DNA of 64,000 bases from a virus (IMGVR_UViG_3300046490_000096:17161-81160), one strand, 5' to 3'; shown: positions 18,753-51,758, counted from the first letter of the stretch. A program made the numbers and translations. Notes: generated by a model from the sequence alone, not told the origin.

Positions 18753-18786
18753 TGACGCCGTTTCGGGAGAGGAGCATATACAGGGG
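18753..18786 (+). promoter_or_regulatory. Motif A promoter-like element
   Basis: TGACGCCGTTTCGGGAGAGGAGCATATACAGGGG. Confidence 0.75.
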
Positions 18787-19346: not shown

Positions 19347-19619
19347 ATGGTATGCGCGCACTGTGATGTAACCATGGACGACTCGTGGAGGTTCTGCCCC
19401 ACGTGCGGAAAGCCCAACGAGATCAACGATGCTATCGCTGGCACCGTTGAGAGGTGGAGGCGCAGGGTGGGTAAAAGCAAGAACGAGCACACAATGGCCG
19501 AGCTGGTTACCGAATTGCAGACCGAAGTATCCGCGCGCATTCATCAGCTACGAGAGGATCTGGCAGAGGCAAAGAGGAAGCTGGCTACTCCTCTTCCGAC
19601 TCCTCCACCTGAATCCTAG
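19347..19619 (+). CDS. Zn-ribbon plus coiled-coil small protein
   Basis: CAHC...FCPTCG then a heptad-rich tail, 2 nt after the Nmad5-like stop. Confidence 0.6.
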   Translation: MVCAHCDVTMDDSWRFCPTCGKPNEINDAIAGTVERWRRRVGKSKNEHTMAELVTELQTEVSARIHQLREDLAEAKRKLATPLPTPPPES

Positions 19620-20511
19620 CCGGCTCCACCTCTCCCTGCTCTCCGATCTTCCCCGCCCCCCAAGCCTCTGACCATGGGATGACGACCTCACGATCATTCG
19701 GTCGATTCGGGGGCGCCATGTACTCGACTACCTCGGTCCCGTGCTTCGTCTCGCGCTCCCAAACAAAGGGTTCGTCGACCGGCACAGTCTGTCCGTCCAG
19801 CTCCTCGGAATCCTCGCCCGTGCGCGAGTCGAACGTGGCCACGAGGCGTTTCATCAGCTCCGGCATGTCCCTGTCTCGCATGGTTTCCATCGTGGCCTGC
19901 GAGGTCACTCCGTAGCTGTAGGCAAGCTCCGTACGCGCAATCCGATCTGCCCGCCACCGCTGCCCATCGAACACGCCGCCGCTCGCCGCGATTCGAGTCA
20001 CCACGCCGTCCACGGTCTCGCCCTGAATGAGCGACTCGGCCATGGCGTCCTTGACCTGCGTGATGGTCTGCGCGCCGTAGAACCCTTTGCTCGCCTCGTA
20101 TCGGTCCAGCAGCGAAGGCAGGACATCGTCCCGCACTCCACGCAGAATCGCCGCCCGGTCGGTCTCGAGGACTGGCATGTGCCCCGTGAACTGCCGCTCT
20201 GCCACCTCGACCGTCTTGATCAGGTGCCGCTGGGCCAGCACGCTCGCGAGTTTCCCCTCTTTCGTCAGGTGCTCCCCCATCGCCTCTTGGAACGCGTGGA
20301 TGCCTTCGTTCACCTGCACCAGCACCATGCGCATGTGCTGGGCTGAGAAGGTGTCTCCCTTGCCCTGCCTTCGCAGCTTCGCCAGCTTGGCTTCGAGCTC
20401 GGCCCGTGACCGCTCATAGATTCCGCGCAGCTTCCCCACGCCGCGGAGTTCGATCACTCCCTGAATCTGGGCGCGGTGAAGGCGGATGACTTCGGCGATG
20501 GCGCTTGCCAT
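19585..20511 (-). CDS. Head morphogenesis / minor head protein (Mu gpF/SPP1 gp7-like)
   Basis: RADRIARTELAYSY, KRLVATFDSRT and PPNRPNDR motifs. Confidence 0.8.
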   Translation of the reverse strand: MASAIAEVIRLHRAQIQGVIELRGVGKLRGIYERSRAELEAKLAKLRRQGKGDTFSAQHMRMVLVQVNEGIHAFQEAMGEHLTKEGKLASVLAQRHLIKTVEVAERQFTGHMPVLETDRAAILRGVRDDVLPSLLDRYEASKGFYGAQTITQVKDAMAESLIQGETVDGVVTRIAASGGVFDGQRWRADRIARTELAYSYGVTSQATMETMRDRDMPELMKRLVATFDSRTGEDSEELDGQTVPVDEPFVWERETKHGTEVVEYMAPPNRPNDREVVIPWSEAWGAGKIGEQGEVEPARIQVEESEEE

Positions 20512-21860: not shown

Positions 21861-22252
21861 TGAATCCCTCCGAATTCAGCGGCCACTCTCGGCCAGTTTG
21901 GTTCCTCGTTCTTGTCGTCCACAAATGCGTCCGCTTCCGGTTTCCCCGGATGCTGCCAGACCTCGTCGAACATCTCCCACAGCCCGAGCGCCCGCAGAAA
22001 ATACCGCATCTCGGCGAAGCGCTCCCACTGGTCTGTAATGCGCGGTGACACTTCCCCGGTCTGATACCAACGCGCCGCTTCCTCTTCCAGTTGCGGCGCT
22101 GGGTCTAAAGGCGTGCACCTGCAGGAGTGAAGCACGAGGTGATGCCCGGCCCTTTTGAGCGCTGCAAGGGCCTCAGCAGCGCCAAGGCGAAGCGCAAGGG
22201 GCCTACCGTGGGCCAGTGACCCATCGAAATCGAAGGCCAGTCGTAGGCTCAA
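21857..22252 (-). CDS. HAD-superfamily phosphatase-like protein
   Basis: Motif I AFDFDGSL, motif II LVLHSCR, motifs III/IV GKPEADAFVDDKN. Confidence 0.75.
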   Translation of the reverse strand: MSLRLAFDFDGSLAHGRPLALRLGAAEALAALKRAGHHLVLHSCRCTPLDPAPQLEEEAARWYQTGEVSPRITDQWERFAEMRYFLRALGLWEMFDEVWQHPGKPEADAFVDDKNEEPNWPRVAAEFGGIQ

Positions 22253-23958
22253 GGCTTGCCCCCATTGCCAGCTTGCGGCGTGGCAGGCTCTTTAGGCTTT
22301 GGCGCAACGGGTTGACCGGGTAGCTTTGGCTTGCCGGGTAGCTCGCCGTAACCCATCATGTCAAGCTCGTCTTTCTTCTGGGCGCGGATGGTTTCCAGAA
22401 GCTTCTTGGTGTCCTTGATTCCGAACAGTTGAGCGCCCCGGTTGACGGCGGTCTCCTCGTCGATGATGCCGCCTTCCTTCGCGGTGACGATGTTCGTGAT
22501 TTCGATCTGGCGGTCGGTCTCGGTCGGGGCGAAGTACGGGCCCCATGTGATCTTGATGTGCCCGCCCGGTCCCAGCTTGCGAGGCGTGCCGTCGGGACGA
22601 GGCGGAAGGTTGAGCTGGAAGACCGCGTCCACCTCTTTGCCCTTCTCGTTCAGGGCCTTGGTGGGCTTGCCGTCGAAGGCGCGAGCCATGAAGTCGATCA
22701 GCTCCAGAAGTCCGACCACGAGAATGTCCCCGTACTGCGCTCGCAAGTCGTCGGCAGCTTCGAGCATCGGAGCGTACAGGAACTCCATCGCCTTCGCCGA
22801 CTGCGCGGCGCCTGACATCTGCTCCGGGTCCAGCATCACGCAGCGAACGACCTTGAGAGCTTGTGCGATCTTCTTGTCCGCGTACACGCTGGCCGCCTGG
22901 ATTCCGGCCGCGCTGATTTCCATGTAGTGCGCGTCGCCCGTGGCCCCGACGTAGAGCGCATTCTCGGAGCCCTTGCGCACGCTTCCGCCCATCTGCGCGA
23001 CCTCTTTCGGGTCGGTGCGAATGACGGTGGTGGGGTCGCTGTTGCAGAGCAGGCCCTTGTTCGCCTGGGAATCCAGCCGGTCCACGGTATCGAAGATTTG
23101 CCAGACCCCGTGGCAGTCAGGGTCGCCGTCTTCGCTGTCGAGCACCTCGGAATTCTGGCACCAGATGCCAGGGAACCGCCCGAGCCCATGCACCCCCTGG
23201 GATTCAACTTCCCACTTCATGTCCACGTTGGGGCTGATTTTCACCGGCTTGAACACGGTATCGTCGTCTTCGGTGATGATCCGCCGGTAGAGGTACTCGA
23301 CCACACGCGTGCCCCGCTGGTTGCCCTTGTCGTCGATCTCGACCTCTTCCACCGGGTAGCGGTACAGCTTCAGAACCGCGAGCGGAGTCTGGGTCCGCTT
23401 GTCCTTCCAGAGCACCTGGCAGTGCTTGGTGTTGTGCACCTCAAGCGAAAACTTGCCATCCCGCAGGTGACACGTCACCAGCACGGTCCCCGTCCCGCCG
23501 CCCATGTTCCGGGCCGCGGTCATCTTAGAAAAGAAGCGCATCTGCTGCATGCATGCCTGCAGGTAGTCCTGCGTGTCCTCGTCGCCCTCGACCTCGACCA
23601 CCGGCCGGCGAGCCTGGGAGAACAGCAGTCCCGTGAAGCGCTTGTTGATGGCCATGCCGAGATTGAAGGGCGCCGTCGGCCGCTTCATGCGCACGGACAT
23701 GTTGATCGCCGGCTGCTCGAATCCCGCAGGAACCTGGACCGATGGGCTGATGGTCTCCATCTGGTCGGCGGTCATCCCCCACCAATCTTGCTTCAAATGA
23801 AGATAATGGGTGGTTCGCCAGACGGCCTCGTACCTGTCGAGCCGGCGGAAGCGCTCAGTCTCTCCGGTGATCGCGTTGGTGTAGAACCACTGCTTGACTT
23901 CCTCGCTGCGAGGAATCTGCATCTGCGGAGCGGGTCCGCCCGTGAGGGTGTCAGCCAT
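22249..23958 (-). CDS. Portal protein
   Basis: 569 aa. INKRFTGLLFS, wing-like beta region, HGLGRFPGIWCQN, SAAQSAKAMEFLY clip/crown region. Upstream of the gpF-like gene. Confidence 0.85.
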   Translation of the reverse strand: MADTLTGGPAPQMQIPRSEEVKQWFYTNAITGETERFRRLDRYEAVWRTTHYLHLKQDWWGMTADQMETISPSVQVPAGFEQPAINMSVRMKRPTAPFNLGMAINKRFTGLLFSQARRPVVEVEGDEDTQDYLQACMQQMRFFSKMTAARNMGGGTGTVLVTCHLRDGKFSLEVHNTKHCQVLWKDKRTQTPLAVLKLYRYPVEEVEIDDKGNQRGTRVVEYLYRRIITEDDDTVFKPVKISPNVDMKWEVESQGVHGLGRFPGIWCQNSEVLDSEDGDPDCHGVWQIFDTVDRLDSQANKGLLCNSDPTTVIRTDPKEVAQMGGSVRKGSENALYVGATGDAHYMEISAAGIQAASVYADKKIAQALKVVRCVMLDPEQMSGAAQSAKAMEFLYAPMLEAADDLRAQYGDILVVGLLELIDFMARAFDGKPTKALNEKGKEVDAVFQLNLPPRPDGTPRKLGPGGHIKITWGPYFAPTETDRQIEITNIVTAKEGGIIDEETAVNRGAQLFGIKDTKKLLETIRAQKKDELDMMGYGELPGKPKLPGQPVAPKPKEPATPQAGNGGKP

Positions 23959-31703: not shown

Positions 31704-32477
31704 TTATCGGCTAGTTACGTCGCCAGCTGTGCCAGCGCCGCGCCCGAGAATCGCCGCCCCCCACCTGCTTATTGCTTCGCGACAGAAGAATTGACTCATT
31801 ACGGTGTCTGTCCCCTTCCCCATCGGGTAGTCCCGCATTTCCTCGTCCCATACGCACCACGAACAGCGGCACTGAGGCGGATGCCCCTCGTACTCGTCTC
31901 GCGGGATGACCCACGCCTGGTTCTTGAACTCGACCTCGAGGGAAGGGAGCCCGTAGGTCGGGTCGACCTTCGATGCGAACCCGGTCGTGTAGCTTTCGAT
32001 CTTGTACCAGATGGAGCTCGAACTCGGGTCGCTCTGAATCCAGTCCACGAGGCTCTGCTGGTAGCCGTTGTTCTCGACCATGATGATCGACAGCGTGGGG
32101 TGCCGCTCGTTTACCCCGGCGATGTGGGCCGCGGTCTCGGGCGACTTCCAGCCTCCCCGGAGTATCTCGAGCGGATACCGGCGAAGGGTGGCCGGGTCGA
32201 TTGCCGCCACGAAGATGACGTTGCCCGGCCTGGCCTTGCCCGCCAGGTCGACTCCGGCGAACACGGGCCATCCCCTGCGCGCGACCTCGCCCAGGACGAC
32301 GCCGTGGGAGTAGCACGTGGTGAAGCTCGGGAACATCCGCTCCTCGTCCGAGAAAGCGCGCATCTGGAAGCCGCGGGAGAAGGCGCGAGGGTTGTCGGCC
32401 TGCTCCTGGCGTAGGCGCTCGGTGTTCCAGTGGGCCTGCCAGACGGGGACGGAGCGGATGCGGCGCTCGCTGTTCAC
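31704..32477 (-). CDS. terL: Terminase large subunit, C-terminal RNase H-like nuclease half (stand-alone gene)
   Basis: PVWQAHW..ERL linker, AGVDLAG, IMVENNGYQ and DTVMS acidic motifs; no ATPase. The GTG start overlaps the upstream TGA. Confidence 0.8.
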   Translation of the reverse strand: MNSERRIRSVPVWQAHWNTERLRQEQADNPRAFSRGFQMRAFSDEERMFPSFTTCYSHGVVLGEVARRGWPVFAGVDLAGKARPGNVIFVAAIDPATLRRYPLEILRGGWKSPETAAHIAGVNERHPTLSIIMVENNGYQQSLVDWIQSDPSSSSIWYKIESYTTGFASKVDPTYGLPSLEVEFKNQAWVIPRDEYEGHPPQCRCSWCVWDEEMRDYPMGKGTDTVMSQFFCREAISRWGAAILGRGAGTAGDVTSR

Positions 32478-33315
32478 GTCGCAGACCCCTCGTCGTCGAC
32501 TTCCACCAGGAGGACGACTTCAAGCTCTCCGAGGTAGCGCGGTATCCACTCCATCTTGAGCCGGTGGGCCTCGGGCATCGCGGCCTCCTCGCTTGGGAAC
32601 AGCATCTTGCTCTGGATGAAGGGTTCGGTGTCCCCAATCTTGCGCACGGCTGGCCTGTAGAGCGCGCGAGCCATCACGCCCGGCCCCGATCGCGCACCGA
32701 TGCCACCACGTCCATCAACTCGACCAGCCTAGCCCTTCTCTCGCGGTCCTCTTTGGCAGACGCGTAGAAGTAGCGGACCACGCACCACTGCTTCCTGTCA
32801 CAGTCCGCTGCTGGGTAGACCGTGCGCACCTGCTCGTTCAGGAAGTGCGTCCGCTTCAAGTGCTGGCGGCGGGCTCCGAAGCGGTAGTAGGAGATCATGC
32901 CGGACTCGCTCCCTCGCCTGCCTTCACGGTCACGCGTCCGCAGCGGTAGCAGAATAGGTCATGCGTCTTTAGGTCATCCAACGTGAGATTGCGATCCATC
33001 GGCGTCAGATCGCCTAGTTCATCATCGCCGCACACCGGGCAAATCGGCCAGCCGTCTTCGCGCCAGGATTCTGGCTTCACGCCCGGCCTCGATTCACATG
33101 CCCGTGCATGATCCCCATGTCGGTCATCGTCTCGGCGGACACCTCACCTTGAACCCGCGGGGAGTCCTCCGGGTCGTCGAAGATTTCCGCCTCGTCCTCG
33201 GCCTTGCCGTCGAGGTAGCCTTCGACGAAGTCCTGCATGTCGGCGATGGCTTCCTTGCGCTCCTCGGGCAGGAGCTTCTCAAACTCCCGGTAGAACGCCT
33301 TGGTCAGGGGGTGCA

Positions 33316-34677
33316 TCACCCCGCCGCCTCCACCTCTACTGGATCTTCTTCCCTCACCCACACAGCTAGCCTCGCCCGCACCACATTCCAGTCCAGGTTC
33401 CTGAACGCCGCCGCCATGCCCACGTCCTTCCGCGCGCCGTAGTCCATCATGTACGCGTCCGGGCTTGCGTCGATGGCCAGCAGGACCGGGCAGCCAGCCG
33501 GCACGCCTTCGTAGCCTCCGCCCACCAGCGCGTTTCGCACGGCGTTTCGGCGCGGGTCCCAGACCGTGAGCGCCCAGCCTTGCTCGACGCTTCCCAGAAT
33601 TGCCCGCAGGTCCAGCAGGTAGCTTGTCATCGAGCCCCAGGTCTTCGTCACCTCGCGGAGCAGAACGCCCGTGGGCATCTTCGCGAAGTCCGGCACCTCG
33701 CCGATGTAGTCCTTGTTCCGCGTGAGGGCCTCGAAGTACAGCTCATGCAACCGGACCGCGTTGTAGGCGGCCGGCTCCTGGCGTAGCAGCTCCGAATGCT
33801 CGGACCAGCCTTCGAAGCTCTTGAACGGCCTCGCCCCTTGCCCCGTGCCAAGAGCTTCTCCCACGGTGCCCTTGAGCTTGCGATACGAGACGGGCCGGCC
33901 TGGGTAGAGGTTCGTCGGCGCCGCGTTCAGGATACCAGCCTTGGCCAGGCCTTCCATGTAGCGGAGCTTGTCCAGCGCCTTGGGCCAGTCCGCGTATTCC
34001 TGCTCCCACTGTGATGTCGGGTCCAGCCAGCAGGCGAACGTCTCGGCCCAGTCCTCGTCCGGATGCTTCTGGCCGTAGTGGTCGCTCACGTCCGTGAGGT
34101 ACTCCACGAAATCCTCGCTCCGCGCGTCCGAAGGGAACTCGTCGCGATACGGAATCCGGAAGTCACCGAAGAGCGCTTCCCAGTCCGGTCGGCGCCACAG
34201 CTCGTGCGTGTAGTTGACCGCGTGGCCTATCTCGTGGCGTAGGCACTTGAGCACCTCGTCTTGCGAGTAAGCCGTCCCTTCCTGCCTGTTCGCCAGTCGC
34301 CAAAGCGTAGGGTTGGCCAGGTACCACGGGATGTTGATGCTCAGCCCGCGGTCAGTCGTCCACCAGTCGTCATCGCCCAGGTAAAAGTTGGGCGACACGT
34401 TCACGCCGGCCGCGACCAGCTCCTTCTTCACCTGGTAGATGGCCGCCGCCAGCGCACCCTGAATCTTGAGCTCCAGGGAAGCCACAGGAGCCGCCAGTAT
34501 CGCCGCGACCTTGGGCGGAGGAGACTCGCCCCAGTCCGTGAGCGGGTAGGCCGCCTCGATCGCGTTCAGGCGCTTCACCGCCTCCGCGTATCCGCCCAGG
34601 TGCGCGGCCAGCATGCGGTCGCTGATCCCGACCAAGTGGCCGCGAAGGTAGGAGAAGTCTCGGGCGATGATGGGCAT
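33316..34677 (-). CDS. Fe/Mn-SOD-fold protein with an inserted HExxH zinc metallopeptidase domain
   Basis: SOD-like RDFSYL...AAHLGGY, NAVRLHELYF and AIDASPDAYMMDYG...FRNLDWNVV flank LRHEIGHAVNY...HYGQKHPDEDWAETFA. Confidence 0.75.
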   Translation of the reverse strand: MPIIARDFSYLRGHLVGISDRMLAAHLGGYAEAVKRLNAIEAAYPLTDWGESPPPKVAAILAAPVASLELKIQGALAAAIYQVKKELVAAGVNVSPNFYLGDDDWWTTDRGLSINIPWYLANPTLWRLANRQEGTAYSQDEVLKCLRHEIGHAVNYTHELWRRPDWEALFGDFRIPYRDEFPSDARSEDFVEYLTDVSDHYGQKHPDEDWAETFACWLDPTSQWEQEYADWPKALDKLRYMEGLAKAGILNAAPTNLYPGRPVSYRKLKGTVGEALGTGQGARPFKSFEGWSEHSELLRQEPAAYNAVRLHELYFEALTRNKDYIGEVPDFAKMPTGVLLREVTKTWGSMTSYLLDLRAILGSVEQGWALTVWDPRRNAVRNALVGGGYEGVPAGCPVLLAIDASPDAYMMDYGARKDVGMAAAFRNLDWNVVRARLAVWVREEDPVEVEAAG

Positions 34678-34682
34678 GGGTT

Positions 34683-35072
34683 CTATCCTACCACCGGCAC
34701 GACCGTGACCCATACGCCGGGCTTGGTCCCCTGCATGTGATTGTGAGTGCTTCCCAGGTAGTAATCCGGGCTGTCGTCCAGAATGAGCTTGGCCGTCTTG
34801 AGCCCATCGTTGACAAACTTCGTTCCAGCTTCGCGATTGTCCCGATCCATCTCGGACTTGTTGCCGTTGATGGGAGCCACCCACAGGAGTTCCAGCCGGT
34901 ATGCTCCGGCCACCTTGGTGACCTGCGCAGCCTTTGCCATCCAAGCGACGTTCTCGGTCCACAGCTTCTTCAGACGAGCGTACTTGAATCCACGCCCGCC
35001 GCATCCCTTGCACGCTTCGATGACCTCGTTTAGGCCGGGCATCTGGCCGTTGACCCAAAAGCGCGTTGCCAC
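34683..35072 (-). CDS. RusA-like Holliday junction resolvase
   Basis: MPGLNE...DRDNREAGTKFVNDGL..AKLILDD acidic motif pattern. Confidence 0.7.
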   Translation of the reverse strand: MATRFWVNGQMPGLNEVIEACKGCGGRGFKYARLKKLWTENVAWMAKAAQVTKVAGAYRLELLWVAPINGNKSEMDRDNREAGTKFVNDGLKTAKLILDDSPDYYLGSTHNHMQGTKPGVWVTVVPVVG

Positions 35073-35255
35073 CCTATCCTCCCATGAAGGATCGTCCCGT
35101 GGCCGTCTCGCACGCCTCCGACCAGCCGCCGCGCTCCGGACGTGCATTGCCGCACGCCTCGCAAAACACGCCGTCGTCGTCTTCCCGCTCGACGTGTCCA
35201 CGAGTAGTTCCATCCGGGTTGGGGACGAAACGCACGTCCGGGAACGGCTCCGGAC

Positions 35256-35510
35256 TCATTGACAGGTGCTCGCCGCGGTCAGTGCCTTCACGTCCCAGGG
35301 CACCGTTTGGGCCGCGTTGGTGCAGACCTCGGCGCAGGTGTGGCCCATGGGTGTTGGCTTCGCCCAGGTGCATCCCAGCTTCGTTCCTTGCGCGCACGCA
35401 GAGGTGCATGTCGCGGCCGGCGCGGGACAGGGCTTGGTGGCCTCGGTCGGGCAAGGCGTGGTAGCGCAGGCCGAAAACAACGCGATCACCATGATGAATA
35501 TGATTTTCAT
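35256..35510 (-). CDS. Cys-rich lipoprotein
   Basis: MKIIFIMVIALFSA-C lipobox-like signal; 9 Cys in 84 aa. Confidence 0.7.
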   Translation of the reverse strand: MKIIFIMVIALFSACATTPCPTEATKPCPAPAATCTSACAQGTKLGCTWAKPTPMGHTCAEVCTNAAQTVPWDVKALTAASTCQ

Positions 35511-36328
35511 TGTCGAACTCCAGCGGGGACGAGCAGGTTGATCCAGAGGTCAGAAGCCCCGTAGTTAGGGCTGGTCAAATAGTCATATCCGAACCTGCAG
35601 CAACCATCTGGAAGTCCAGGCTCATGCCCGCCTTCCTTGCCCCAGGAGCCCTTGATGAGGACCCACTCCTCGGCATGGTTGAACCCGGCAATCGTGAGAC
35701 AGTGGCCTCCCGCGATGGTGTCGCGCGATGTCGGCGCGTGAATGATTCCGGTCGGGGTTGAGCTGCAGAACTCTTCAGTGACGAGACAGCCGAAGGGGAT
35801 GCCGTGCTTTGCGGTTGAGGCCGTTTCGATGTCACCAATCAGTGTCGCACCTTGCGAGCTGATGGGATGATAGTTGATTCCAATGGTCCCCCGCGAATCA
35901 AAGGCCGCCCTGTCCACGTCAGGACCTGGAAGCTGTTTGAACTTCGAGATGTCGTACGGGTACACGCTCTCATTCGGCACACCCTTGGCAGCCAAGATGG
36001 TGTAGGCGTCCCCGATGTTTCCGCCTGCGTCCTGGTTTACTTTGCCCTCCAGATACCGGATACCGAAATAGAGCCAAAGGCGCGCCAGCACGAATGCGGG
36101 AACGCCAGCCTTCTTCATGGCCATGTACATGGCCTGCGCCGGTCCGTTGCTCTGGCAGCTTCCCAGCTGGCCCTGGTCGAGGTCGCAGGTAAGCGAGGAG
36201 TTGTCGGCCGACTTTGCCTTCGCAAGCCCAGCCAGCACACTATCGCCGGCCTCTGGGTGCGCCTTCAGCAGCGTCCTGATTCGTTGCTCTGGAGTTGGGG
36301 CTACCCAACCGAGTGCTCTTGTGTTCAT
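35507..36328 (-). CDS. Papain-like (C1) cysteine protease
   Basis: DQGQLGSC (oxyanion Gln and catalytic Cys), GGHCL (His), and KGSWG where NSWG is expected. Confidence 0.85.
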   Translation of the reverse strand: MNTRALGWVAPTPEQRIRTLLKAHPEAGDSVLAGLAKAKSADNSSLTCDLDQGQLGSCQSNGPAQAMYMAMKKAGVPAFVLARLWLYFGIRYLEGKVNQDAGGNIGDAYTILAAKGVPNESVYPYDISKFKQLPGPDVDRAAFDSRGTIGINYHPISSQGATLIGDIETASTAKHGIPFGCLVTEEFCSSTPTGIIHAPTSRDTIAGGHCLTIAGFNHAEEWVLIKGSWGKEGGHEPGLPDGCCRFGYDYLTSPNYGASDLWINLLVPAGVRQ

Positions 36329-36648
36329 TGATTTTCCTTTCGTTTGCATGCTGGCCAGTACGGTTCGCCACAGCTCCCCGCGGCCACTTTTGCTTGAGCT
36401 TCCCCGCGGCACGGCTCCTCGATGCCACAAGCGTTCCACGCGCAAGCCGACCACACCATTCCCTGGTCGTCCACGCAGGAGGCTGGGACAGCGTAGTGGG
36501 GCGTGCAGCGCGGCTTCGCGTGAGCCTGCTCGAGGCGGGCCGCGAGTTCGGTTCCTGGCGTCGGATCGTGCGGCGCTGTCGCGCAGCTAGCGAGCGTCCC
36601 GATGATGAGGCCAGCCAGCCAGAGCCAGAGCAGGTGGATTGGCTTCAC
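36325..36648 (-). CDS. Cys-rich lipoprotein
   Basis: GTG start, MKPIHLLWLWLAGLIIGTLAS-C lipobox, 8 Cys. Confidence 0.65.
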   Translation of the reverse strand: MKPIHLLWLWLAGLIIGTLASCATAPHDPTPGTELAARLEQAHAKPRCTPHYAVPASCVDDQGMVWSACAWNACGIEEPCRGEAQAKVAAGSCGEPYWPACKRKENQ

Positions 36649-37154
36649 TTCCCCATCCTCGCCGCCTGCATCCGTTCCCCCTCCTCGCGCCCCAACATCG
36701 CCGCCTTGTGGACGTACGCCGGGCTGCCACCGAACGACGTCCCGAGCCCGAAGAGTAGCCGCCACTGGACTTGCGCCGGGCCGCTGGGCTGCTCGATGAT
36801 CTCCGGCCCCGCGCCGATCTGGATGTAGTTGGCGATGGACAAGATGAGCGACGGCGCGAGCTGATTCGGCTGCCCCTGTCCCACGAGGAACGAAGCATAG
36901 AGAGCAGCGCCGAGGGCAACCGGACCAGAGTAGGTCACACCGTAACCAACACCGGGGACGATGCCGCCCGAGAACTTCGAGGTGTTCAGGTTGAATTCCC
37001 CGACTGTGATTGCGACCGCTGGGCCGACGCATGTCTTCTGGTCGACGCCGAAGCACGTCCCAAATTGCGGGGTCTGCGCGTGCGCCTGCGTAGCCCCTGG
37101 AATTGCGTAGGTGGCCACAAAGGCGAGCAAGAATGCAAAGAGAAGTCGTTTCAT
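36645..37154 (-). CDS. Exported, possibly outer-membrane beta-strand protein
   Basis: Signal peptide MKRLLFAFLLAFVATYA followed by amphipathic beta strands (GVGYGVTY, YIQIGAG, WRLLFGLGTSF). Confidence 0.6.
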   Translation of the reverse strand: MKRLLFAFLLAFVATYAIPGATQAHAQTPQFGTCFGVDQKTCVGPAVAITVGEFNLNTSKFSGGIVPGVGYGVTYSGPVALGAALYASFLVGQGQPNQLAPSLILSIANYIQIGAGPEIIEQPSGPAQVQWRLLFGLGTSFGGSPAYVHKAAMLGREEGERMQAARMGK

Positions 37155-37555
37155 GTGGTGGGTCCTTTCTTGAACGGAACGGTGATGGGTGTCTTGTCAT
37201 CCTGCAACGGCACGGCCTGTTGCTTGGCCGGAGTGTTGACCGAATCTGGGTCAGCAGAGCGCGGGGCTTGCACCATGGGCACCACGTTGTCCTTGGCCGG
37301 GTTCCACGGCGCAACCGCACCGGGGGGCGTGGCGAGTCCCGCCTTGGCCATAGTCTGCCTGAGCCACGGCAAGGCCAGCGCCAGACCTCCGCAGGCCAGC
37401 ACCAAGATCCCGAGGATATGCACGATGCCCGTCACGTGGGGAATTCCGCTGGCGGTAAGCCAGTTCGCAGCGGCTTGGATGTCCGGTCCTGATACCGCCA
37501 GAATGCCCAGAAAAATCAGGACGGTGTTTCGATTCAGAGCTACGGGTAGCTTCAT
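37151..37555 (-). CDS. Membrane protein, holin-like candidate
   Basis: Two hydrophobic segments and a charged C-terminal tail. Confidence 0.5.
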   Translation of the reverse strand: MKLPVALNRNTVLIFLGILAVSGPDIQAAANWLTASGIPHVTGIVHILGILVLACGGLALALPWLRQTMAKAGLATPPGAVAPWNPAKDNVVPMVQAPRSADPDSVNTPAKQQAVPLQDDKTPITVPFKKGPTT

Positions 37556-37950
37556 GGTGTCACGTTCCCTTCTCGGTCGATGGTATCACGGCGGCGGACC
37601 TCCAAATTCCACAAAGCCTGCCAGCGCGCGACCTGCCCGGTCTGCCACTCGCGAAGCCGCTCCTTCTTCCACCCCTTGAACACTCCCGCGTTGGCGTGGA
37701 AGTCCATGTGGCACTTGTGGGCCATTGGCACACCCTGATCGTGCCCAGACTTCTTGCCCATGGCTCGGTTCTGTGTGTTGTGGTGCACCTCGACGGGACC
37801 GCACCCTCCCACGCGTGGGCAGCAACAGCGCTGCTTGTGCAGCCACTCAAGACGGAGCTTGTCTTCCGGCGCGATTGGCTTGGCCTTGCGCACCCGTCGC
37901 ATCGGCTTACGCCGGATTGGAGTCTTGCGTTTGAGTGGTGTTCGCTTCAT
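37552..37950 (-). CDS. HNH-fold / DUF968-like putative nuclease
   Basis: Basic MKRTPLKRKTP N-terminus; CCC...VEVHH...VPMAHKCHMDFH. Confidence 0.6.
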   Translation of the reverse strand: MKRTPLKRKTPIRRKPMRRVRKAKPIAPEDKLRLEWLHKQRCCCPRVGGCGPVEVHHNTQNRAMGKKSGHDQGVPMAHKCHMDFHANAGVFKGWKKERLREWQTGQVARWQALWNLEVRRRDTIDREGNVTP

Positions 37951-37963
37951 GTGATCCCCATTG

Positions 37964-38263
37964 TTAGCCCTCGCCCCAGCCCGCGCCACCGCCCTCGCCA
38001 GCGCCCCAGCCCGCGCCCTCGCCCTCGCCAGCGCCCTCGCCCGCGCCCTCGCCCTCGCCCGCGCCCTCGCCCGCGCCCGCGCCACCGCCCTCGCCAGCGC
38101 CCCAGCCCGCGCCAGCGCCCTCGCCAGCGCCCCAGCCCGCGCCCGCGCCACCGCCCCAGCCCGCGCCCTCGCCAGCGCCCCAGCCCGCGCCCGCGCCACC
38201 GCCCCAGCCCGCGCCCGCGCCACCGCCCTCGCCAGCGCCCGCGCCCGCGCCCCAGCCCGTCAC
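37964..38263 (-). repeat. (Gly-X)n repeat ORF built from GGC-NNN hexamers
   Basis: VTGWGAGAGAGEGGG...GWGEG*. The GTG start overlaps the upstream TGA. Confidence 0.7.
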
Positions 38264-38583
38264 TGCGTCACGAAACGAGCGAACGATTCCACAGCCTCCG
38301 CCGAGCACTCATGGATCGCCGCCACGTCCAGTAGGAGAGTCGACGCGATGGTGGCGCCGATCCTGGACTCCGCCATCCTCGGGCCACAGAGTCCGAAGGC
38401 TGCCAAACTCGTCACGCCGCCGGTCTTCCCGTGCCAATAGCGAATGTTCCGCGCCTCGTACAGACGCACGCTCTTGTTCTTGACCACCTCCGCATCGGTA
38501 GACTTGATGTGACCAAACCACAGCCCATAGCTCCCGTTACCTACGATGACCCACCTCTTCGCGATCTTCTTTGCCTTACTCAT
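38260..38583 (-). CDS. DUF6948-like phage protein
   Basis: GLWFGHI...VRLYEARNIRYWHG...SLAAFG...IHECSAEA. First gene after a motif-A promoter. Confidence 0.6.
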   Translation of the reverse strand: MSKAKKIAKRWVIVGNGSYGLWFGHIKSTDAEVVKNKSVRLYEARNIRYWHGKTGGVTSLAAFGLCGPRMAESRIGATIASTLLLDVAAIHECSAEAVESFARFVTQ

Positions 38584-38615
38584 GTTGTCCCTCTCAGTTG
38601 GATTTCGTTCCTTCT

Positions 38616-38649
38616 CCCCTGTATATGCGTCTCGCTCGAAACGGCTTCG
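38616..38649 (-). promoter_or_regulatory. Motif A promoter-like element
   Basis: CGAAGCCGTTTCGAGCGAGACGCATATACAGGGG. Confidence 0.75.
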
Positions 38650-38650
38650 A

Positions 38651-39085
38651 TCAAAATGGAACGTTTTCGTCCCCTGCTGGCGGCGCCTGCGACGACGTGT
38701 CGAAGTCGTTCCGAGGCACCTGGCTGCCGGTGTCGCGGTCTTTGCCGTTGCCGTTGGGCTTCCCCAGGAATACGACGCGTTCTGCGACCACGTCTGTCAC
38801 GTAGCGCTTGATGCCTTCCTTGTCCTCGTAGTTCCGGGTCTGCAATCGGCCCTCGACGTAGACCTGCTGCCCCTTCGTGAGATACTTGCCGCAGTTCTCG
38901 GCCGACTGGCCCCACACAGTTACGCGGATCCACTCCGTGCGCTCCTGCTTGGCTCCAGCCTTGTCCTTCCACTGTTCGTTGCAGGCCAGGCTAAGGTTGC
39001 ACACGGGCTGATTGCTTGCTGTGAACTTCAGCTCGGGGTCGGCTCCCAAATTCCCAATGCCGAGCCATTTATTGACGCTGCCCAT
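38651..39085 (-). CDS. ssb: Single-stranded DNA-binding protein
   Basis: VNKWLGIGNLGADPE, TEWIRVTVWG, KGQQVYVEGRLQTR and the acidic DENVPF tail. Confidence 0.95.
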   Translation of the reverse strand: MGSVNKWLGIGNLGADPELKFTASNQPVCNLSLACNEQWKDKAGAKQERTEWIRVTVWGQSAENCGKYLTKGQQVYVEGRLQTRNYEDKEGIKRYVTDVVAERVVFLGKPNGNGKDRDTGSQVPRNDFDTSSQAPPAGDENVPF

Positions 39086-39086
39086 C

Positions 39087-39443
39087 CTACGCCAGTGCCT
39101 CGGCCATCGCCTTGACCGTGGCCAAGAACAGATGATCCTTCTGCTGCTGTGCAGGCGGTAGCTCGGCGTATGACACAAAGCGCGGGTGCTCCTTCTTCTC
39201 CGGATCCTTGACCGGGCCGTACTTCCATCCCGTTGCGTACTTTTCGGCAAGCCACGACTCGTGCGACTGCTCTGGCGTGTTCCCAGCGAGCGCACCAGCA
39301 ACGCCATTGATGGCTGACGAGCGCTGCCAGTCGGGAGCGTCCTTCCATGCTGGCTGCGACAGGTCGCCGTGGGCTTCGCAGTAGATGCGGTTCATTTCGT
39401 GGGCAGCTTCTGCACATTTTTCGATTTTCTGTTGTGTATCCAT
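39087..39443 (-). CDS. RyR-domain protein
   Basis: PEQSHESWLAEKYATGWKYGPVKDPEKKEHP..VSYAELP..QQQKD. Confidence 0.85.
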   Translation of the reverse strand: MDTQQKIEKCAEAAHEMNRIYCEAHGDLSQPAWKDAPDWQRSSAINGVAGALAGNTPEQSHESWLAEKYATGWKYGPVKDPEKKEHPRFVSYAELPPAQQQKDHLFLATVKAMAEALA

Positions 39444-39612
39444 CAGACCCTCTCCTTCTTTCGTTCCGGTTCCTTGGGCGACCTGCTCACCATGAAGGCA
39501 TCCTTCTGGACGATCTTCAGGGCCGCCCTCTTGATCTTCAATCGAGCTGGGAACTGCGCGCAGCACTCCGGGCAAAGACAGGGGAGAGCTCGGCGGGATT
39601 CCCGGCTGCTGC

Positions 39613-40143
39613 TCACGATGTCGGCCTCGCTGGTTGTGGCGCCCATAGGTACAGCTTCCCGCGCACAACCCGATCCTTCGTCCAGCCGGCTTTCTTGTAG
39701 CAGCACCCTGGATTGGTCGAACGCACGTTCTTAATTCCGATCTCGGTGCGCAGTCTCTCGACGGGAAGTTCACCGTAGCGTTTGAGCCACTCCGCATAGG
39801 TCATTTCGAGGGCCGCGCGCACTAGATCCGACGATCGCTCCTCGCCGAGGTTTCGGAAGACCATGTTGCGCCAGATGTACCGCGGCGCCGAGTCGGTTGC
39901 TCCTGTGCGCCCTCGGCTTGCCCCGGTCCCGCGTGCACTCGGTGTCCGCTGCCGAACCACCGCCCACACGGCGTCGCCGTCGTCGGTAACGAGTACAATC
40001 TCTTGGCCTACGCCGGTGAACGTCTTACTCCCTGGCGTGCGGCGAGAATAGTGCGGCCCCTTTCCTGCGTGCTTGCCGGTGCCATCGACAACGTCCAGGG
40101 CGCGCCGGTCACTGGACGATGACAATGTCCAGCGAGCGATCAC
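39613..40143 (-). CDS. Putative GNAT-fold, Mom-like DNA-modification protein
   Basis: HYSRRTPG...WRNMVFRN...SSDLVRAA...VRSTNPGCCYKKAGW resembles Mom/XF1762-like acyltransferases. Confidence 0.45.
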   Translation of the reverse strand: MIARWTLSSSSDRRALDVVDGTGKHAGKGPHYSRRTPGSKTFTGVGQEIVLVTDDGDAVWAVVRQRTPSARGTGASRGRTGATDSAPRYIWRNMVFRNLGEERSSDLVRAALEMTYAEWLKRYGELPVERLRTEIGIKNVRSTNPGCCYKKAGWTKDRVVRGKLYLWAPQPARPTS

Positions 40144-42032
40144 GACGGCCGATTCTCCGTCGCCTGAAACGCCTTCGAGAATGCCGACACGACCGCCGCC
40201 ACCTTGGCCATGGCTTCGTCGCCTGCGTTGTAGAGCTTCATCCGCTCCACGAACAGCACCACGGCTGCGGTCTTGGATACGCTCGGAGCCTCGGCCTCGA
40301 ATAGCTCGACTAGCTTTCCCAGGAAGGTCAGCGTCTCGATCACGACCGGGGCGATTTCGCGATCTGGGATGAGGCGAGTCGCCCGGATGTGATCGGCGGC
40401 TTCGAGGGCGAGGACTTCTTCGGCGGTCTTGTCGTTCACGTTTTCACCTTGTGTTGATCCAGTAGCTCGTCAGCGCCCGCTCGCCCAATTCCCGGCACTC
40501 GGGGCACGTCGCAAAGTCGTATTCCTGCGTCCACTTTTCCCGGATGCTCGCCCCGCAGATAGGATAGCCACCCACTCCAAAGTGCATGATCGCCGGCTCT
40601 GGGAAGAGCAATGAAGGCAGTGCGGAACGCTTCTGTAAAGGCTCCGGAAGAGACCCGACTCGCCACCATGCCCGCCACCAAATCCGCCTCCATCCCCCGA
40701 TAGCTTCGAAGCGACTCCGGGCCCACGCCAGTCTCCCGACCTGCACTAGCCAGATGTTCGGCGCTTCCTGCATCGCTTGTCACGACGTGAGCCTACTGCC
40801 ACCTTGGCCGCGGTAGCAAGGAATCCCGCCTCGACGGATCGGTGGTACTGCTCCAGCTTCCACTGATGCATGAACCCTAGAACAGTTCCCCTCCTCTTGT
40901 AGCGCCAGAGCTTCGGGTCCTCGTGGTTGTCCTTGAGCATCTCGAAGGCTTGCTGATAGCTCAGCCCGCACCGGAACGAGTCGTAGCCGGGAAGGCCGCG
41001 CTTCGCGCCCCACTTCGAGGCCATTCACCGGATTTCCCTCGCGTCCGGCAACGCGCCCATGTGCCGTTTCCTAGCCGCGTCTTCCTTCTGCACCCGCGTC
41101 TGCCAGGCCCTGTATTCCAAAGCGTTCATCCTTCGCCTGGTCGGGTACTGCGACGGCTCCGGCTCCAATCCCGTGCGCAGACCGGCCGCCTTCTTCGCCC
41201 TACATCCTGCGCAGCGCTCGGTGTAGGTCGGAGTCTCCCCTGCCTCCTTGCCCTTGCGGCACTGGGAACAGGTGTAGGGCTTCGCGGATTTGCTCACCAC
41301 ACACCTGCCTTGTGCGCTTCGTAGGCATCCTTGTAGAGCATGATTGCCTTTCCGACCCTTCTCAGCACAGTCGGATGCAGCGGCCTCCCGCGCTTTCCCT
41401 TGGGCGTTATCACGAGTCCGCCGTCCTTGTTCACGGACAGTGCAACCTGGCTCGCCCCGTTGACCTTGCACACCTCGCGTATCCCCTGCTCCGTGAAGGT
41501 CAGTCCCGTGGCGTGACAAATCTTCTCGATGTCCCGCAAGAACTGCCTCTGCGTGTGGACCGTCGAAGTCTTGTAGGTGCGGTCGCGCATGGTGATTCGC
41601 TCCTGCCGGCGGCGGCGTTCGGTCGTCGGGTTGGCGTGGCCGAGTCGGCAGCGGGTGCGCTTACTCACGACCTCGCCACCCTTCCCAAGTCTTCCATCAT
41701 GCCCTTCACCGGAAAGCCCTTCGGATTGCCACTGATGACCGTGAACCCCGTCCCCACTGAATGCACGACGGACCGGCGAGGAGACGTTGCCTTGTAGCCG
41801 GAAGGGGTCCGCTCGAAACTGCACACCTTCTCGGCGCCTTCGATGTCGAAGCCGAGAGCGCAGACTTCAGAGAGAGCAGCGGAGGCCCACTGGGTGAACC
41901 AACTCGTAATGTCTCCCATCTGCCCAACGCGGTCGACGATGTCCGCCTCGTCCCCAACTAGATCCATCTTCGATGTGCCGTTCTCCCAATTCACCTCCGC
42001 GCGAAGAAGAGCGTCCGCCCTTTGCGCCCGAG

Positions 42033-42764
42033 TCACTGCCCACCTCCCAGCACGTCCGCGTGCTTCTGCCGGTGCAGAGCAATCCGGTCCCGCAGGCGTT
42101 CGATGCGGTGGCGAGTCCCGGCGCTGGCGGCGAGGATGCGGGCGGAATCACCCTGCACCTTTGCGACCTCGTCAGCCGCCGACGCGCTCGCCTTCAGTGC
42201 CGCCTCGCGGACACCTACCGCCTGCATGACCTCGGCGCACTTCACGTCGGCCAGTGCCTTCAGTTCGTCGATTTGCCCAAGCAACTCGCTGTAGTCCATG
42301 CGCGCGGCATCCTCTGCGCGCCTCGCAACGTCCGCCTCAGTCGACGCCACCGCCGACTTCACTTGCGCATCCGCAATCCCCGCATCGTGGCCCTTGATTC
42401 GCTCCGCCAGCTCGGCCTCGGCCTTGTCCAGCTCGATCTGCAGCCGGTCCAGCTTCGCCTGCACCAGCTTGCGCTCGGCCTCCGGGTCTTTCACCACCCG
42501 GCCAATCAACTCCACCGGAGCGTCGCCTTTAAGCTTTCTGTTCATCGCCCGCACCGCGCAGCCACAGATGCGGCTCTCGGTCTTGCCCTCGCGCTGGTAG
42601 TCCTGGAATCCCTTCCCATTGCACCATCGGCACTGCGGGTTGGCCATCGAGAGAACCTCCGACAGGGGCGCTTGGCCCAAGTCGAGTTTCACCATCGGGT
42701 CGGCGGAGCGCGGCGGCTGACCCGGAGGTACGAGCGGAGCTTCTTGGGACTGTTCGGTGTTCAT
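42033..42764 (-). CDS. Zn-finger plus long coiled-coil protein
   Basis: CRWCNGKG...CGC followed by heptad repeats. Confidence 0.6.
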   Translation of the reverse strand: MNTEQSQEAPLVPPGQPPRSADPMVKLDLGQAPLSEVLSMANPQCRWCNGKGFQDYQREGKTESRICGCAVRAMNRKLKGDAPVELIGRVVKDPEAERKLVQAKLDRLQIELDKAEAELAERIKGHDAGIADAQVKSAVASTEADVARRAEDAARMDYSELLGQIDELKALADVKCAEVMQAVGVREAALKASASAADEVAKVQGDSARILAASAGTRHRIERLRDRIALHRQKHADVLGGGQ

Positions 42765-42937
42765 CGTGTTTCCTTCACCGCTGCCATGCATTCAGCGGGT
42801 CCGCCGCCCTTGCTCAGACAATCCGCAAAGGCTTCGTTGCTTTGCCTCTGACCCATGATTCTCATAACCGTCAGAGCCACGACAATGGCAACAAGTGCCA
42901 GCGCCACAATCCAAAGTTGCTTCGAGTCTTCGTTCAT
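42761..42937 (-). CDS. Small single-pass membrane protein (58 aa)
   Basis: Translated by hand: MNEDSKQLWIVALALVAIVVALTVMRIMGQ...ETR*. First gene after motif A at 42.95 kb; ATGA-coupled. Confidence 0.6.
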   Translation of the reverse strand: MNEDSKQLWIVALALVAIVVALTVMRIMGQRQSNEAFADCLSKGGGPAECMAAVKETR

Positions 42938-42953
42938 TGCCTCTTTCCCCTCT

Positions 42954-42987
42954 CCCCTGTATATGCGTCTAGGCCGAAACGGCTTCG
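42954..42987 (-). promoter_or_regulatory. Motif A promoter-like element overlapping the TerL-ATPase stop
   Basis: CGAAGCCGTTTCGGCCTAGACGCATATACAGGGG. Confidence 0.75.
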
Positions 42988-43769
42988 ATCAAATCTGGGT
43001 AATCGTCTCCACCCCCGACCACGGTCTGTTCCACCTCCGTGCAGTCGTCGGAAATGCTCTGCCGCAAAGTGCACCACCGGGGCCGCTGCATGAGATGGTG
43101 AAGGGCGTCGTCTTGGTGCCACGTTGTGCCAATAGCAAGCATGTTCCCGTCCGGCTCCAAGCGGGAAAACCACGTCTCTTCCAGCAGCGAGAGCACCCTG
43201 CGCCGCTGGATTGGGTCCATGCTGTTCTTTTGGTCCACCACGTCATCTAGCAACTCGATATCTGCGCGTCCACCAATGCCCGTCGTGAAGATTCCGCGGG
43301 CCTGCACCGTTGGGTCGACCGCATGCCCCACGCGCTTCACGTAGAGTTCGTGCCCCGTCCACGCTCCGCCGCTCACCACGCCTGGGAACACCTGCCGATA
43401 GACCACGGACTCGAGAATGCGCTTCACAGCCCCCACCCGCTTGCTCGCCGAGTCGTCGTCGTTGGTGATGATCTTGATGCGCAGGTTCGGGTCTTGACCG
43501 ATCATGTAGGCGCATAGAGGTACAAGTAGGGAACTTGACTTCCCATGGCCGAAGGGCGCCAGCGTCATACATCTTAACTCACGAGTCCAACAGTAGTTCA
43601 GGTGCCGAATCCAGGACATGTGAATCGGGGCCAGCTTGATGCCGACGCCGTGATCGTCCTTCACGGCGAGCGCGATGAAGTTGGCCAAACTCGTGCGGGC
43701 CCGCGCCACCTTCGCGTTCCACAGGGCAGCGAGAGCGCGCGCGGGCGATGGCTTATGCTGTGGGGGCAT
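42969..43769 (-). CDS. terL: Terminase large subunit, N-terminal ATPase half (stand-alone gene)
   Basis: Walker A APFGHGKS, Walker B ADIELLDD, coupling motif IGTTWHQDD. Ends at a TAG before any nuclease domain. Confidence 0.85.
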   Translation of the reverse strand: MPPQHKPSPARALAALWNAKVARARTSLANFIALAVKDDHGVGIKLAPIHMSWIRHLNYCWTRELRCMTLAPFGHGKSSSLLVPLCAYMIGQDPNLRIKIITNDDDSASKRVGAVKRILESVVYRQVFPGVVSGGAWTGHELYVKRVGHAVDPTVQARGIFTTGIGGRADIELLDDVVDQKNSMDPIQRRRVLSLLEETWFSRLEPDGNMLAIGTTWHQDDALHHLMQRPRWCTLRQSISDDCTEVEQTVVGGGDDYPDLIEAVSA

Positions 43770-44172
43770 CGTCCTTCCGTCCAAACTTCGCCAGCAGCCA
43801 CTTCGCGACGAAGTCCAAGGGACTCGATACGATGGGAAACGCCGGGTCCCCGGTCATGCCCATCGGCTCGAAACGCATGCCCATAAGCTTCCTGACGCTT
43901 GGTTCGAACGGGACGCCGTACTGCCAAGCCATACTCAAACTCATCGCTACCGCGTCGAGGGCGCCCCTGGCCATGGAGCCTTCCTGATCAGCCTTGATAA
44001 ACACCTCGCCGGGCCGTCCGTCTTCGTACAGCCCAACGTGGACGTACATTTTGAGCGGTCCGCGCTTGATTTCCTTTCCGCAGTGCTCGCACTTCTTCGG
44101 CTGGCGTGGGATGCGGAACGCCTTGCAGACGCTCTTGCGCTCGTCCGGCAGGCGCATTCGCTCTGGCGTCAC
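43753..44172 (-). CDS. Stand-alone TSCPD domain (class II ribonucleotide reductase C-terminal-like)
   Basis: RLPDERKS...YVHVGLYEDGRPGEVFI...SMAWQYGVP...MRFEPMG...SSPLDFVAKWL. Confidence 0.85.
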   Translation of the reverse strand: MTPERMRLPDERKSVCKAFRIPRQPKKCEHCGKEIKRGPLKMYVHVGLYEDGRPGEVFIKADQEGSMARGALDAVAMSLSMAWQYGVPFEPSVRKLMGMRFEPMGMTGDPAFPIVSSPLDFVAKWLLAKFGRKDDAPTA

Positions 44173-47343: not shown

Positions 47344-47377
47344 CCCCTGTATATGCTCCTACTCCCAAACGGCTTCA
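47344..47377 (-). promoter_or_regulatory. Motif A promoter-like element
   Basis: TGAAGCCGTTTGGGAGTAGGAGCATATACAGGGG. Confidence 0.75.
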
Positions 47378-48181
47378 GTTTTTCCCGAAGAGCTGCTCCA
47401 CATCGACGCTCGCCGGCAATTCCCCGGTCCTGGCAAACTCTTCCATCTGCTCCGGCGTGAGCTTCTTCCACGGGTCCTCGACCTTCACTTCCTTGCGTTC
47501 GGTCGGCTTGTCGTAGAGCAGGGATTCGATCTTCACGAGCAGGTCGGCCGCCTGCGCTGCCGTCCGGGCGTTGGCCAGGGCCTCGGTTCCGCTCATCGGG
47601 ATCCGGATGGCCGAGCCGTCCTTGGTGTACTCGATGCGGGCGAAGTCGACGCCCTCCCTCATCGTGTCGACCAGCTTCTTCACCGAGGCGAAGAGGGACG
47701 ACTTGATCCCGTTCACCACGATCAGGTTGTCCTTGCGGGCCTTCTCCCACTCGGTCAGCACTGTCCCGGCGATCTTTTCGGCCGCTATGCTCTCCGCGGT
47801 CTTTAGTGTCTCGTGCTCGAGCGCGAGCTGCGCTTCGAAGCTTGGCCAGTTCCGCAAAGGGTTCCCCTGCATCAGCTTCTTCGCCGTCTGGAAAGTCATC
47901 CCGTGCTTTCGCGCCAGCGTCATCACGTGCCTGGTCCCAGCCTTCCAGTCTAAGTACACGATCCAGCGCAGATCGTCGCTCACCCGTCGACCGTTCGCCT
48001 TGTGTGGTGAGTTCGCACGGGCCAGCCTTTCCGCTTCCGTGCGCTCGTACCTGGCGGCGCTTCGCCCCGGCAAACGGACGCCCTCGTCGGTGGAGGGATC
48101 CGTCGAGGGCGCCGCTTCTTCTACCCGGTCCGAGGAACCGGCCGAGTCACAAGTGGCTTCATCTGCTTTTTCGTCAATCAT
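47375..48181 (-). CDS. Putative terminase small subunit
   Basis: HTH-like region (LARKHGMTFQTAKK), helical oligomerisation segment, and C-terminal KPTERKEV...LTPEQMEE as in many TerS proteins. Confidence 0.55.
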   Translation of the reverse strand: MIDEKADEATCDSAGSSDRVEEAAPSTDPSTDEGVRLPGRSAARYERTEAERLARANSPHKANGRRVSDDLRWIVYLDWKAGTRHVMTLARKHGMTFQTAKKLMQGNPLRNWPSFEAQLALEHETLKTAESIAAEKIAGTVLTEWEKARKDNLIVVNGIKSSLFASVKKLVDTMREGVDFARIEYTKDGSAIRIPMSGTEALANARTAAQAADLLVKIESLLYDKPTERKEVKVEDPWKKLTPEQMEEFARTGELPASVDVEQLFGKN

Positions 48182-51724: not shown

Positions 51725-51758
51725 TACCTGTATATGCTCCTACCCCGAATCCGCTTCA
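51725..51758 (-). promoter_or_regulatory. Motif A promoter-like element
   Basis: TGAAGCGGATTCGGGGTAGGAGCATATACAGGTA, directly before the tRNA-like RNA. Confidence 0.7.

Follow-up and report, generated by a model that had tools for sequence, protein, structure and literature searches.

The sequence analysed was a window of 64,000 nucleotides (64 kb; IMGVR_UViG_3300046490_000096:17161-81160) from an IMG/VR virus record of 81,160 bp, which is linear, was estimated to be 86% complete and derives from an uncultured phage. Its subject is the large terminase subunit (TerL), whose two activities, ATPase and nuclease, are not carried by one polypeptide but by two open reading frames (ORFs), here and in all close relatives, with a distance of 10,492 nt between the two halves in the window. 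As argued below, the large terminase of this phage is probably made as two separate polypeptides and would then be a natural two-chain enzyme. The features concerned, with positions counted from the first letter of the window, are the following.

42969-43769, minus strand: TerL chain 1, the ASCE ATPase core only, 266 aa from its ATG (translation, profiles, predicted fold)
32474-42968, minus strand: intervening block of ~22 mostly small ORFs (crude gene call, PHROG and Pfam scans)
31704-32477, minus strand: TerL chain 2, two linker helices and a RuvC/RNase H-like nuclease, 257 aa (translation, profile, predicted fold)

An initial annotation had given these coordinates for both genes and quoted their motifs, and translation proved it correct on both counts. 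It had also noted that the nuclease gene is joined to its upstream neighbour by a GTGA overlap, and the GTG start was indeed found to overlap the stop of a 67-aa ORF (32474-32677) in this way. Its placing of the two genes on the same strand held, with the correction that this is the minus strand; likewise, the distance of ~10.5 kb stood, whereas its estimate of ~25 intervening genes was lowered to ~22 minus-strand ORFs.

The frame of the ATPase gene is open 5' of the ATG at 43769 as far as a TTG at 43784, and the ATG agrees with a 17-nt overlap with the upstream TSCPD gene that recurs in a close strain (L036). Residues of the ATPase chain are numbered on the 271-aa translation from this TTG (P0001), and those of the nuclease chain on the 257-aa P0002. 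The ATPase chain carries the motifs APFGHGKS (Walker A), ADIELLDD (Walker B) and IGTTW (C or coupling motif), and its stop follows ~45 residues later. When 30 ATPase homologues were aligned, the Walker A lysine K82 and the Walker B residues D180 and D181 were invariant, and T220 and W222 of the C-motif (T220-W222) nearly so. The ATPase core ends 10-20 aa before the C-terminus of P0001. The TerL profile phrog_38 (760 positions) matched this chain at profile positions 266-470 (E 4e-32), and a profile built from ATPase-only homologues matched T7 gp19 and PhiV-1 TerL with E of ~1e-14. The AlphaFold2 (AF2) model had a pLDDT of 94, and its residues 15-264 were superimposed on residues 2-245 of PhiV-1 TerL (8dgc_E) with a VIA Z of 22.7 and a root-mean-square deviation (rmsd) of 2.5. 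Among GenBank phages, the ATPase half matched fused TerLs only, all at <33% identity.

The nuclease chain contains the motifs PVWQAHW, GVDLAG, VENNGYQ and DTVMS. It starts ~10 aa ahead of its conserved motif and is composed of a conserved PxW..W segment with two helices (residues ~10-42), followed by a RuvC/RNase H-like fold (~43-245). In an alignment of 22 nuclease homologues, the catalytic residues D77, E135 and D224 were invariant, and W13 and L22 of the N-terminal segment were conserved at 90% or more. The chain also holds an H-C-C-C cluster (H199, C203, C205, C208). It was matched by phrog_38 at positions 485-627 (E 1e-8). The AF2 model had a pLDDT of 82.7, with the first 20 residues poorly ordered in this monomer model, and it was aligned over 164 residues with the G20c TerL nuclease (VIA Z 16.5, rmsd 2.6) and, through residues 5-253, with residues 251-539 of 8dgc_E (VIA Z 14.7). 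The nuclease fold proper begins at model residue 43-46, equivalent to G20c 255 and T4 gp17 360. A tblastn search of GenBank phages with the nuclease half gave no match, and neither did a near-identity DNA search of GenBank phages with the region.

The two halves thus match consecutive stretches of both phrog_38 (266-470, then 485-627) and 8dgc_E (2-245, then 251-539), which backs the initial annotation in describing them as complementary chains of 266 and 257 aa, each holding one part of TerL only. Their summed length is 523-528 aa, against ~500-540 aa in fused relatives. In the predicted models, the break lies directly after the RecA-like core and ~45 residues before the nuclease fold, so that the PxW..W segment and its two helices go with the nuclease. 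In T4 numbering, judged from the aligned ranges, the ATPase chain would end near 315, at the end of subdomain I, and the equivalents of ~315-360 would lie on the nuclease chain.

Profile and structure searches, suggested in the initial annotation as a check on each half, matched phrog_38 and TerL folds, while neither half reached the gathering threshold of Pfam Terminase_6N or Terminase_6C; indeed, no Pfam family was matched by either half at E <= 1. As PF03237 is present on the TerLs of related cultured phages and the window halves do not match it, the TerL family of the window is taken to be a divergent relative. A search of the whole record for PF03237, PF17289, PF03354 and PF04466 gave no match, and phrog_38 matched only the two halves. 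A full-length terL elsewhere, which the initial annotation had named as evidence against a split, was therefore not found in the 81,160-bp record (86% complete). The genome is that of a tailed phage with portal and capsid genes, in which no other terminase was detected.

The break in related phages

Relatives were taken from IMG/VR and other assemblies. In every close relative found, TerL was broken at the same place, with an N half that ends ..GG.DYP.. and a C half that starts ..P.W..W..(E)RL, whereas the arrangement of the halves varied as follows.

L006, L007: halves overlap by 4 nt (GTGA), in different frames
L018, distant and AT-richer: halves overlap by 38 nt, in different frames
L038/L039, an HK97-like phage in two samples: halves overlap by 11 nt, in different frames
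L025: halves 1.7 kb apart on the same strand, with three genes between
L019, L020, L021, G001: halves 13.5, 14.1, 15.1 and ~18 kb apart, respectively, on the same strand
L040: halves >8 kb apart
G004/L024, 100% complete: order reversed (nuclease, TerS-like gene, ATPase)
L042: halves on opposite strands, 5 kb apart, with an intein of its own in each

Relatives estimated to be 96% and 100% complete held the two halves only and no other terminase. The initial annotation had proposed a check of related phages; the split proved not to be peculiar to the window phage but clade-wide and apparently recurrent in the TerL family. A close strain from another sample (L036, L037, L005) was 84-91% identical in nucleotides to the window, and these assemblies reproduced both gene ends, L036 and L037 for the ATPase stop and L005 for the context on the nuclease side. 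As independent assemblies from other samples agree on gene ends and context, misassembly is argued against.

Since adjacent, overlapping halves exist in some relatives, the split, judged from these arrangements, predates the 10.5-kb separation. Insertion of a cassette as the cause of the split was ruled out by the overlapping split genes that lack any insert (L006, L007 and L018). Fusion of the genes by site-specific excision was also rejected: where the halves are adjacent their frames still differ, and a search of the ten largest ORFs in the intervening block showed no recombinase family. A 1119-aa read-through frame in G009 turned out to be two ORFs with three genes between them.

Both halves are, on the substitution ratios, under strong purifying selection. 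The ratio of nonsynonymous to synonymous substitution rates (dN/dS) was 0.086 for the ATPase (window against L036; synonymous rate, dS, 0.57) and 0.010 for the nuclease (window against L005; dS 0.49). Pairwise identities of the two halves across ten genomes were correlated with r = 0.83 (Mantel 2/5000).

Stand-alone homologues of the nuclease formed 87 clusters at 90% identity, of ~250-260 aa, all unnamed or 'hypothetical', and the longer relatives of this chain were either nuclease-only proteins with an intein or fused TerLs at <=42% identity. With the ATPase chain as query, an exhaustive phmmer search gave 4350 matches. Among the best 150 representative ATPase clusters, 96 were ATPase-only, intein-sized inserts being present in 24 of these, and 54 were fused; 76 of the 96 ended between -10 and +25 residues from the break point of the window. 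In a quick maximum-likelihood tree of 121 ATPase domains, split and fused forms required 31 parsimony changes (a count that artefactual entries may inflate, see below), at least 12 of which were forced by well-supported branches. This distribution suggests repeated splitting or re-fusion in the TerL family. More distant homologues, from contigs of metagenome-assembled genomes (MAGs) and from cultured phages, were fused. The MAG contigs that hold fused relatives are labelled Planctomycetota, Xenobia, Dehalococcoidia, Omnitrophota and archaea, labels by which the host is not fixed.

One such 'fused' relative, the 586-aa P0092 of L026 (Planctomycetota MAG JAJDCN010000325.1), has its two parts bridged by a low-complexity stretch of ~85 aa that resembles a translated intergenic repeat; the protein is possibly a read-through of two genes and not a true linker.

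Inteins or intein-sized inserts were observed within the chains of several relatives. In the ATPase chain, the sites were at the Walker A lysine (~83), near residue 174 and near the C-motif (~220), the intein near 174 being one of 364 aa in a 90%-identical strain (L036:7684-9573, L037:3298-5187), and in the nuclease chain the site was DTVMA/C. Further carriers were the ATPase of G001, L042:10001-11635, L042:16635-18659 and P0090.

A separate peculiarity was seen in the G004-like relatives, whose nuclease gene is interrupted by a conserved 5-nt frame break (L024:8420-8480, minus strand) that is identical in L012:4150-4200, L013 and L014. It comprises a perfect 8-bp hairpin, CCCCGCTC-ATTC-GAGCGGGG, followed by GGT TAG G(T/C) TTC, with conserved residues carrying on in the other frame ahead of any start codon. 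If the ribosome made a +5 hop, leaving GGU and passing over UAG to GGU/GGC, the product would have exactly the ..SFERG/FRQSAF.. of unbroken relatives, whereas a -1 shift would add two residues. The site is thus a candidate for programmed recoding, and gene calls of 215-220 aa in databases, from several sources, may share this type of break.

The intervening block and the genome around it

The genes between the halves differed almost wholly from phage to phage when synteny was compared by blastp, only 1-3 genes being shared with L019, L021 and L022. On this turnover, the block is a fast-changing accessory region. The homology of L036/L037 to the window ends at 42961, just beyond the ATPase stop. 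Two genes of the block could be named.

38651-39307, minus strand: SSB
33316-35058, minus strand: 580-aa protein with Sod_Fe_C and a Peptidase_Mx-like zinc-peptidase segment (Pfam and PHROG scans)

Homologues of the 580-aa protein (422-983 aa) were encoded upstream of the nuclease gene, either adjacent or one small gene off, in L005, L019, L021, L024 and L042, and farther from it in L006 and G001, so that this gene stays near the nuclease gene in most relatives, including those in which the rest of the block has changed. This suggests that the protein is functionally linked with the nuclease chain or with head assembly. The block also contains a tandem array of 12- and 18-nt repeats in 20 registers (37919-38325), mostly within a 223-aa ORF (37552-38223), which implies that this ORF encodes a low-complexity repeat protein.

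A pattern search revealed a 31-nt motif, GAAGCCGTTT-N11-CATATACAGG, in 6 copies against 0 expected (repeat families D2/D4).

58167-58197, minus strand: motif copy
51727-51757, minus strand: motif copy
47346-47376, minus strand: motif copy
42956-42986, minus strand: motif copy
38618-38648, minus strand: motif copy
18754-18784, plus strand: motif copy

Copies are placed right after the TerS-like gene, across the last codons and stop of the ATPase gene, and after ssb; those on the minus strand are ~4.3 kb apart, and the copies inspected had on their 3' side a G-rich run resembling a ribosome-binding site and then a start codon. The motif is not sigma-70-like and may be a phage-specific promoter that heads gene cassettes, or another unit boundary. 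Exact matching in the loci of relatives gave no copy, and a scan of 31-48.5 kb for sigma-70 promoters and terminators found nothing above shuffled background. Because the motif overlaps the ATPase stop and the two terminase genes lie in different motif-delimited blocks, separate regulation of ATPase and nuclease, as proposed in the initial annotation, is plausible.

Transcription runs from high to low coordinates, and along this direction the order is the TerS-like candidate, seven small genes, the ATPase gene, the ~22 ORFs of the block, the nuclease gene and the portal gene. The surrounding features were these.

64-47 kb: replication and recombination genes (primase-like, methyltransferase, Erf, exonuclease, helicase, ParB-like)
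47375-48181, minus strand: candidate small terminase, 268 aa, low confidence, 3.6 kb upstream of the ATPase gene
43753-44172, minus strand: TSCPD-domain protein, 139 aa (Pfam E 3e-10), overlapping the start of the ATPase gene by 17 nt
22249-23958, minus strand: portal protein, among the head genes matched by phrog_64, phrog_2468 and phrog_1357, 7.7 kb downstream of the nuclease gene
19585-20511: head-morphogenesis gene (PHROG match), beyond the portal gene
14508-15890: major head protein (PHROG match), beyond the head-morphogenesis gene

The position of the TSCPD gene is conserved in L036 and L037. The candidate small terminase was not matched by any family in Pfam or PHROG and is weakly homologous to a protein with a helix-turn-helix that is encoded directly upstream of the ATPase gene in L024 and L019. 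By blastp it was 26% identical (E 5e-15) to the L024 protein (6809-7606), with E 1e-14 for that of L019, in a comparison confined to these two relatives. L006, L018 and L025 also have a gene at the equivalent position. A scan of the whole window for transfer RNA genes found none.

A probable two-chain terminase and its alternatives

Production of the large terminase as two separate polypeptides is the explanation that we consider probable. Chain 1 (~30 kDa) would be the RecA-like ATPase core, and chain 2 (~29 kDa) would consist of the PxW..W segment and two helices, then the whole RuvC-like nuclease. In one-chain terminases, this segment and its helices come immediately after the ATPase core. 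The N-terminal segment of chain 2 would dock non-covalently on chain 1 and re-form the normal TerL fold, and the packaging ring at the portal would be built from chain 1/chain 2 heterodimers. That the two chains associate physically is what we infer, indirectly, from the conservation of the docking-like segment, the co-divergence of the halves and their translational coupling in relatives. The two-chain motor put forward in the initial annotation is favoured by a break that is conserved at any distance, order or strand, by purifying selection, and by the lack of room for an intein or of any sign of an intron. As for the separation, the stop/start overlap between the genes would have become a permissive slot in which promoter-headed accessory cassettes gathered, filling 10.5 kb in the window phage and as much as 18 kb in relatives, and the ATPase and nuclease genes would consequently now be in different transcription blocks.

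Three points weigh against a two-chain enzyme. The N and C domains of T4 gp17, expressed apart, reportedly did not restore packaging (Kanamaru et al. 2004), so a working two-chain motor is not trivially to be expected. The record is 86% complete, so that a further terminase could sit in the missing 14%, although the 96-100%-complete relatives have the two halves only. Finally, split and fused forms are interspersed in the tree, and some of the 'ATPase-only' entries may be artefacts of frameshifts or gene calling that inflate the number of changes.

The leading alternative, which we judge unlikely, is that no stable complex is formed: the ATPase alone would be the translocating ring, as in phi29, and the nuclease would be free or transiently recruited, with separate expression timing the cuts. 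This would agree with the location of the genes in different motif-delimited blocks, with the free variation of position, order and strand among relatives and with the poor order of the first 20 residues of the nuclease chain in its monomer model. However, the PxW..W segment and two helices, which belong to the ATPase side in one-chain TerLs, are retained in every nuclease chain, suggesting a docking element, and the halves co-diverge tightly and are translationally coupled in the ancestral-looking arrangement.

Rejoining of the halves after transcription or translation into a one-chain TerL, by a split intein, by trans-splicing of RNA or by another ligation, is very improbable. The TerL family is rich in inteins and protein splicing is common in these genes, but the known inteins are internal to one half and never at the break. 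No intein domain was found by Pfam in either half, and an Rfam scan of the 64-kb window matched no family and no intron. Neither half has spare length at its end for an intein, be it an IntN of ~100 aa or an IntC of ~35 aa, and the two halves together are already as long as fused relatives. The absence of intein motifs at either junction reported in the initial annotation agrees with both the Pfam result and these lengths. Its further suggestion, joining by some other mechanism, fares badly for routes in cis: the halves are collinear in the window, but their reversal in L024 and location on opposite strands in L042 mean that collinearity is not needed in the clade. Given the distance of 10.5 kb and these permuted and opposite-strand relatives, cis-joining, whether by cis-splicing of one transcript, frameshifting or bypassing, is unlikely.

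It is hardly credible that one or both genes are the decaying remains of a terL broken up by an insertion, with another packaging enzyme at work, or that the contig is misassembled. In favour of this are the linear, 86% complete record and the cassette-like block, which begins right at the ATPase stop. Against it, both genes have a dN/dS far below 1, invariant catalytic residues and intact frames; the same state occurs in 96-100%-complete relatives without another terminase; independent assemblies agree; and in L006, L007 and L018 the genes are split with no insertion present.

Beyond the two-chain enzyme itself, it is conceivable, but doubtful, that splitting of TerL is adaptive and not neutral, that it arose or was reversed many times, and that the junction is a preferred landing site for promoter-headed cassettes. 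If splitting were adaptive, with the nuclease and its lid helices apart from the ATPase core, DNA cutting could be timed or dosed independently of translocation, and the phage could also escape host sensors of intact TerL such as Avs-type STAND proteins. Such proteins bind both the ATPase and the nuclease domain of TerL, as in the complex 8DGC.

Known terminases and consequences

The best sequence and structure match of both halves was to the T7-type TerLs (T7 gp19, PDB 4BIJ model; PhiV-1, PDB 8DGC chain E), which share with them the Walker A/B/C motifs and the D-E-D nuclease centre; these are one polypeptide, whereas the window phage has two genes. Folds are likewise shared with T4 gp17 (3CPE), P74-26/G20c, D6E, HK97, Sf6 gp2 and the SPP1 G2P nuclease, with Z of 13-18 for the ATPase and 14-16.5 for the nuclease, and all of these are single chains, unlike the TerL of the window phage. 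In P2, 'ATPase subunit' and 'endonuclease subunit' denote TerL and TerS under historical names.

In the published cases of split terL genes, restoration is by introns or inteins (PMC12880540), and 10-nt inserts are described for Hau3 (PMC10732093). Such intron- or intein-split genes are, like the present one, interrupted by other DNA; however, their pieces are collinear and a single protein is restored, whereas the window phage has no intron or intein at the break, and relatives have the pieces in reversed order or on opposite strands. The packaging ATPase of the phi29 gp16 type has a vestigial nuclease domain (PMC7672431) and so resembles the window ATPase in lacking a covalently attached active nuclease. 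In contrast, phi29 lost the nuclease activity because the DNA that it packages is of unit length and protein-primed, whereas an intact, conserved nuclease chain is present here in every genome. A full-text literature search brought up no account of a TerL that is encoded by two stand-alone genes. What stands out is how far apart the halves lie, how freely they are rearranged and how broad the clade is.

Annotation pipelines, TerL phylogenies and completeness estimates based on TerL will mis-score such phages, and the slot between the genes is a hotspot of accessory genes worth mining. For the packaging motor, models disagree on the roles of the nuclease domain and the linker in translocation. 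The inchworm model of T4 relies on a covalent hinge, by way of which the C-domain shifts DNA relative to the N-domain, whereas in the ring-ATPase models of P74-26 and phi29 the DNA is gripped by the ATPase ring. A natural, selected TerL whose chain is interrupted between RecA core and lid helices would be a ready test of which of these contacts need to be covalent.

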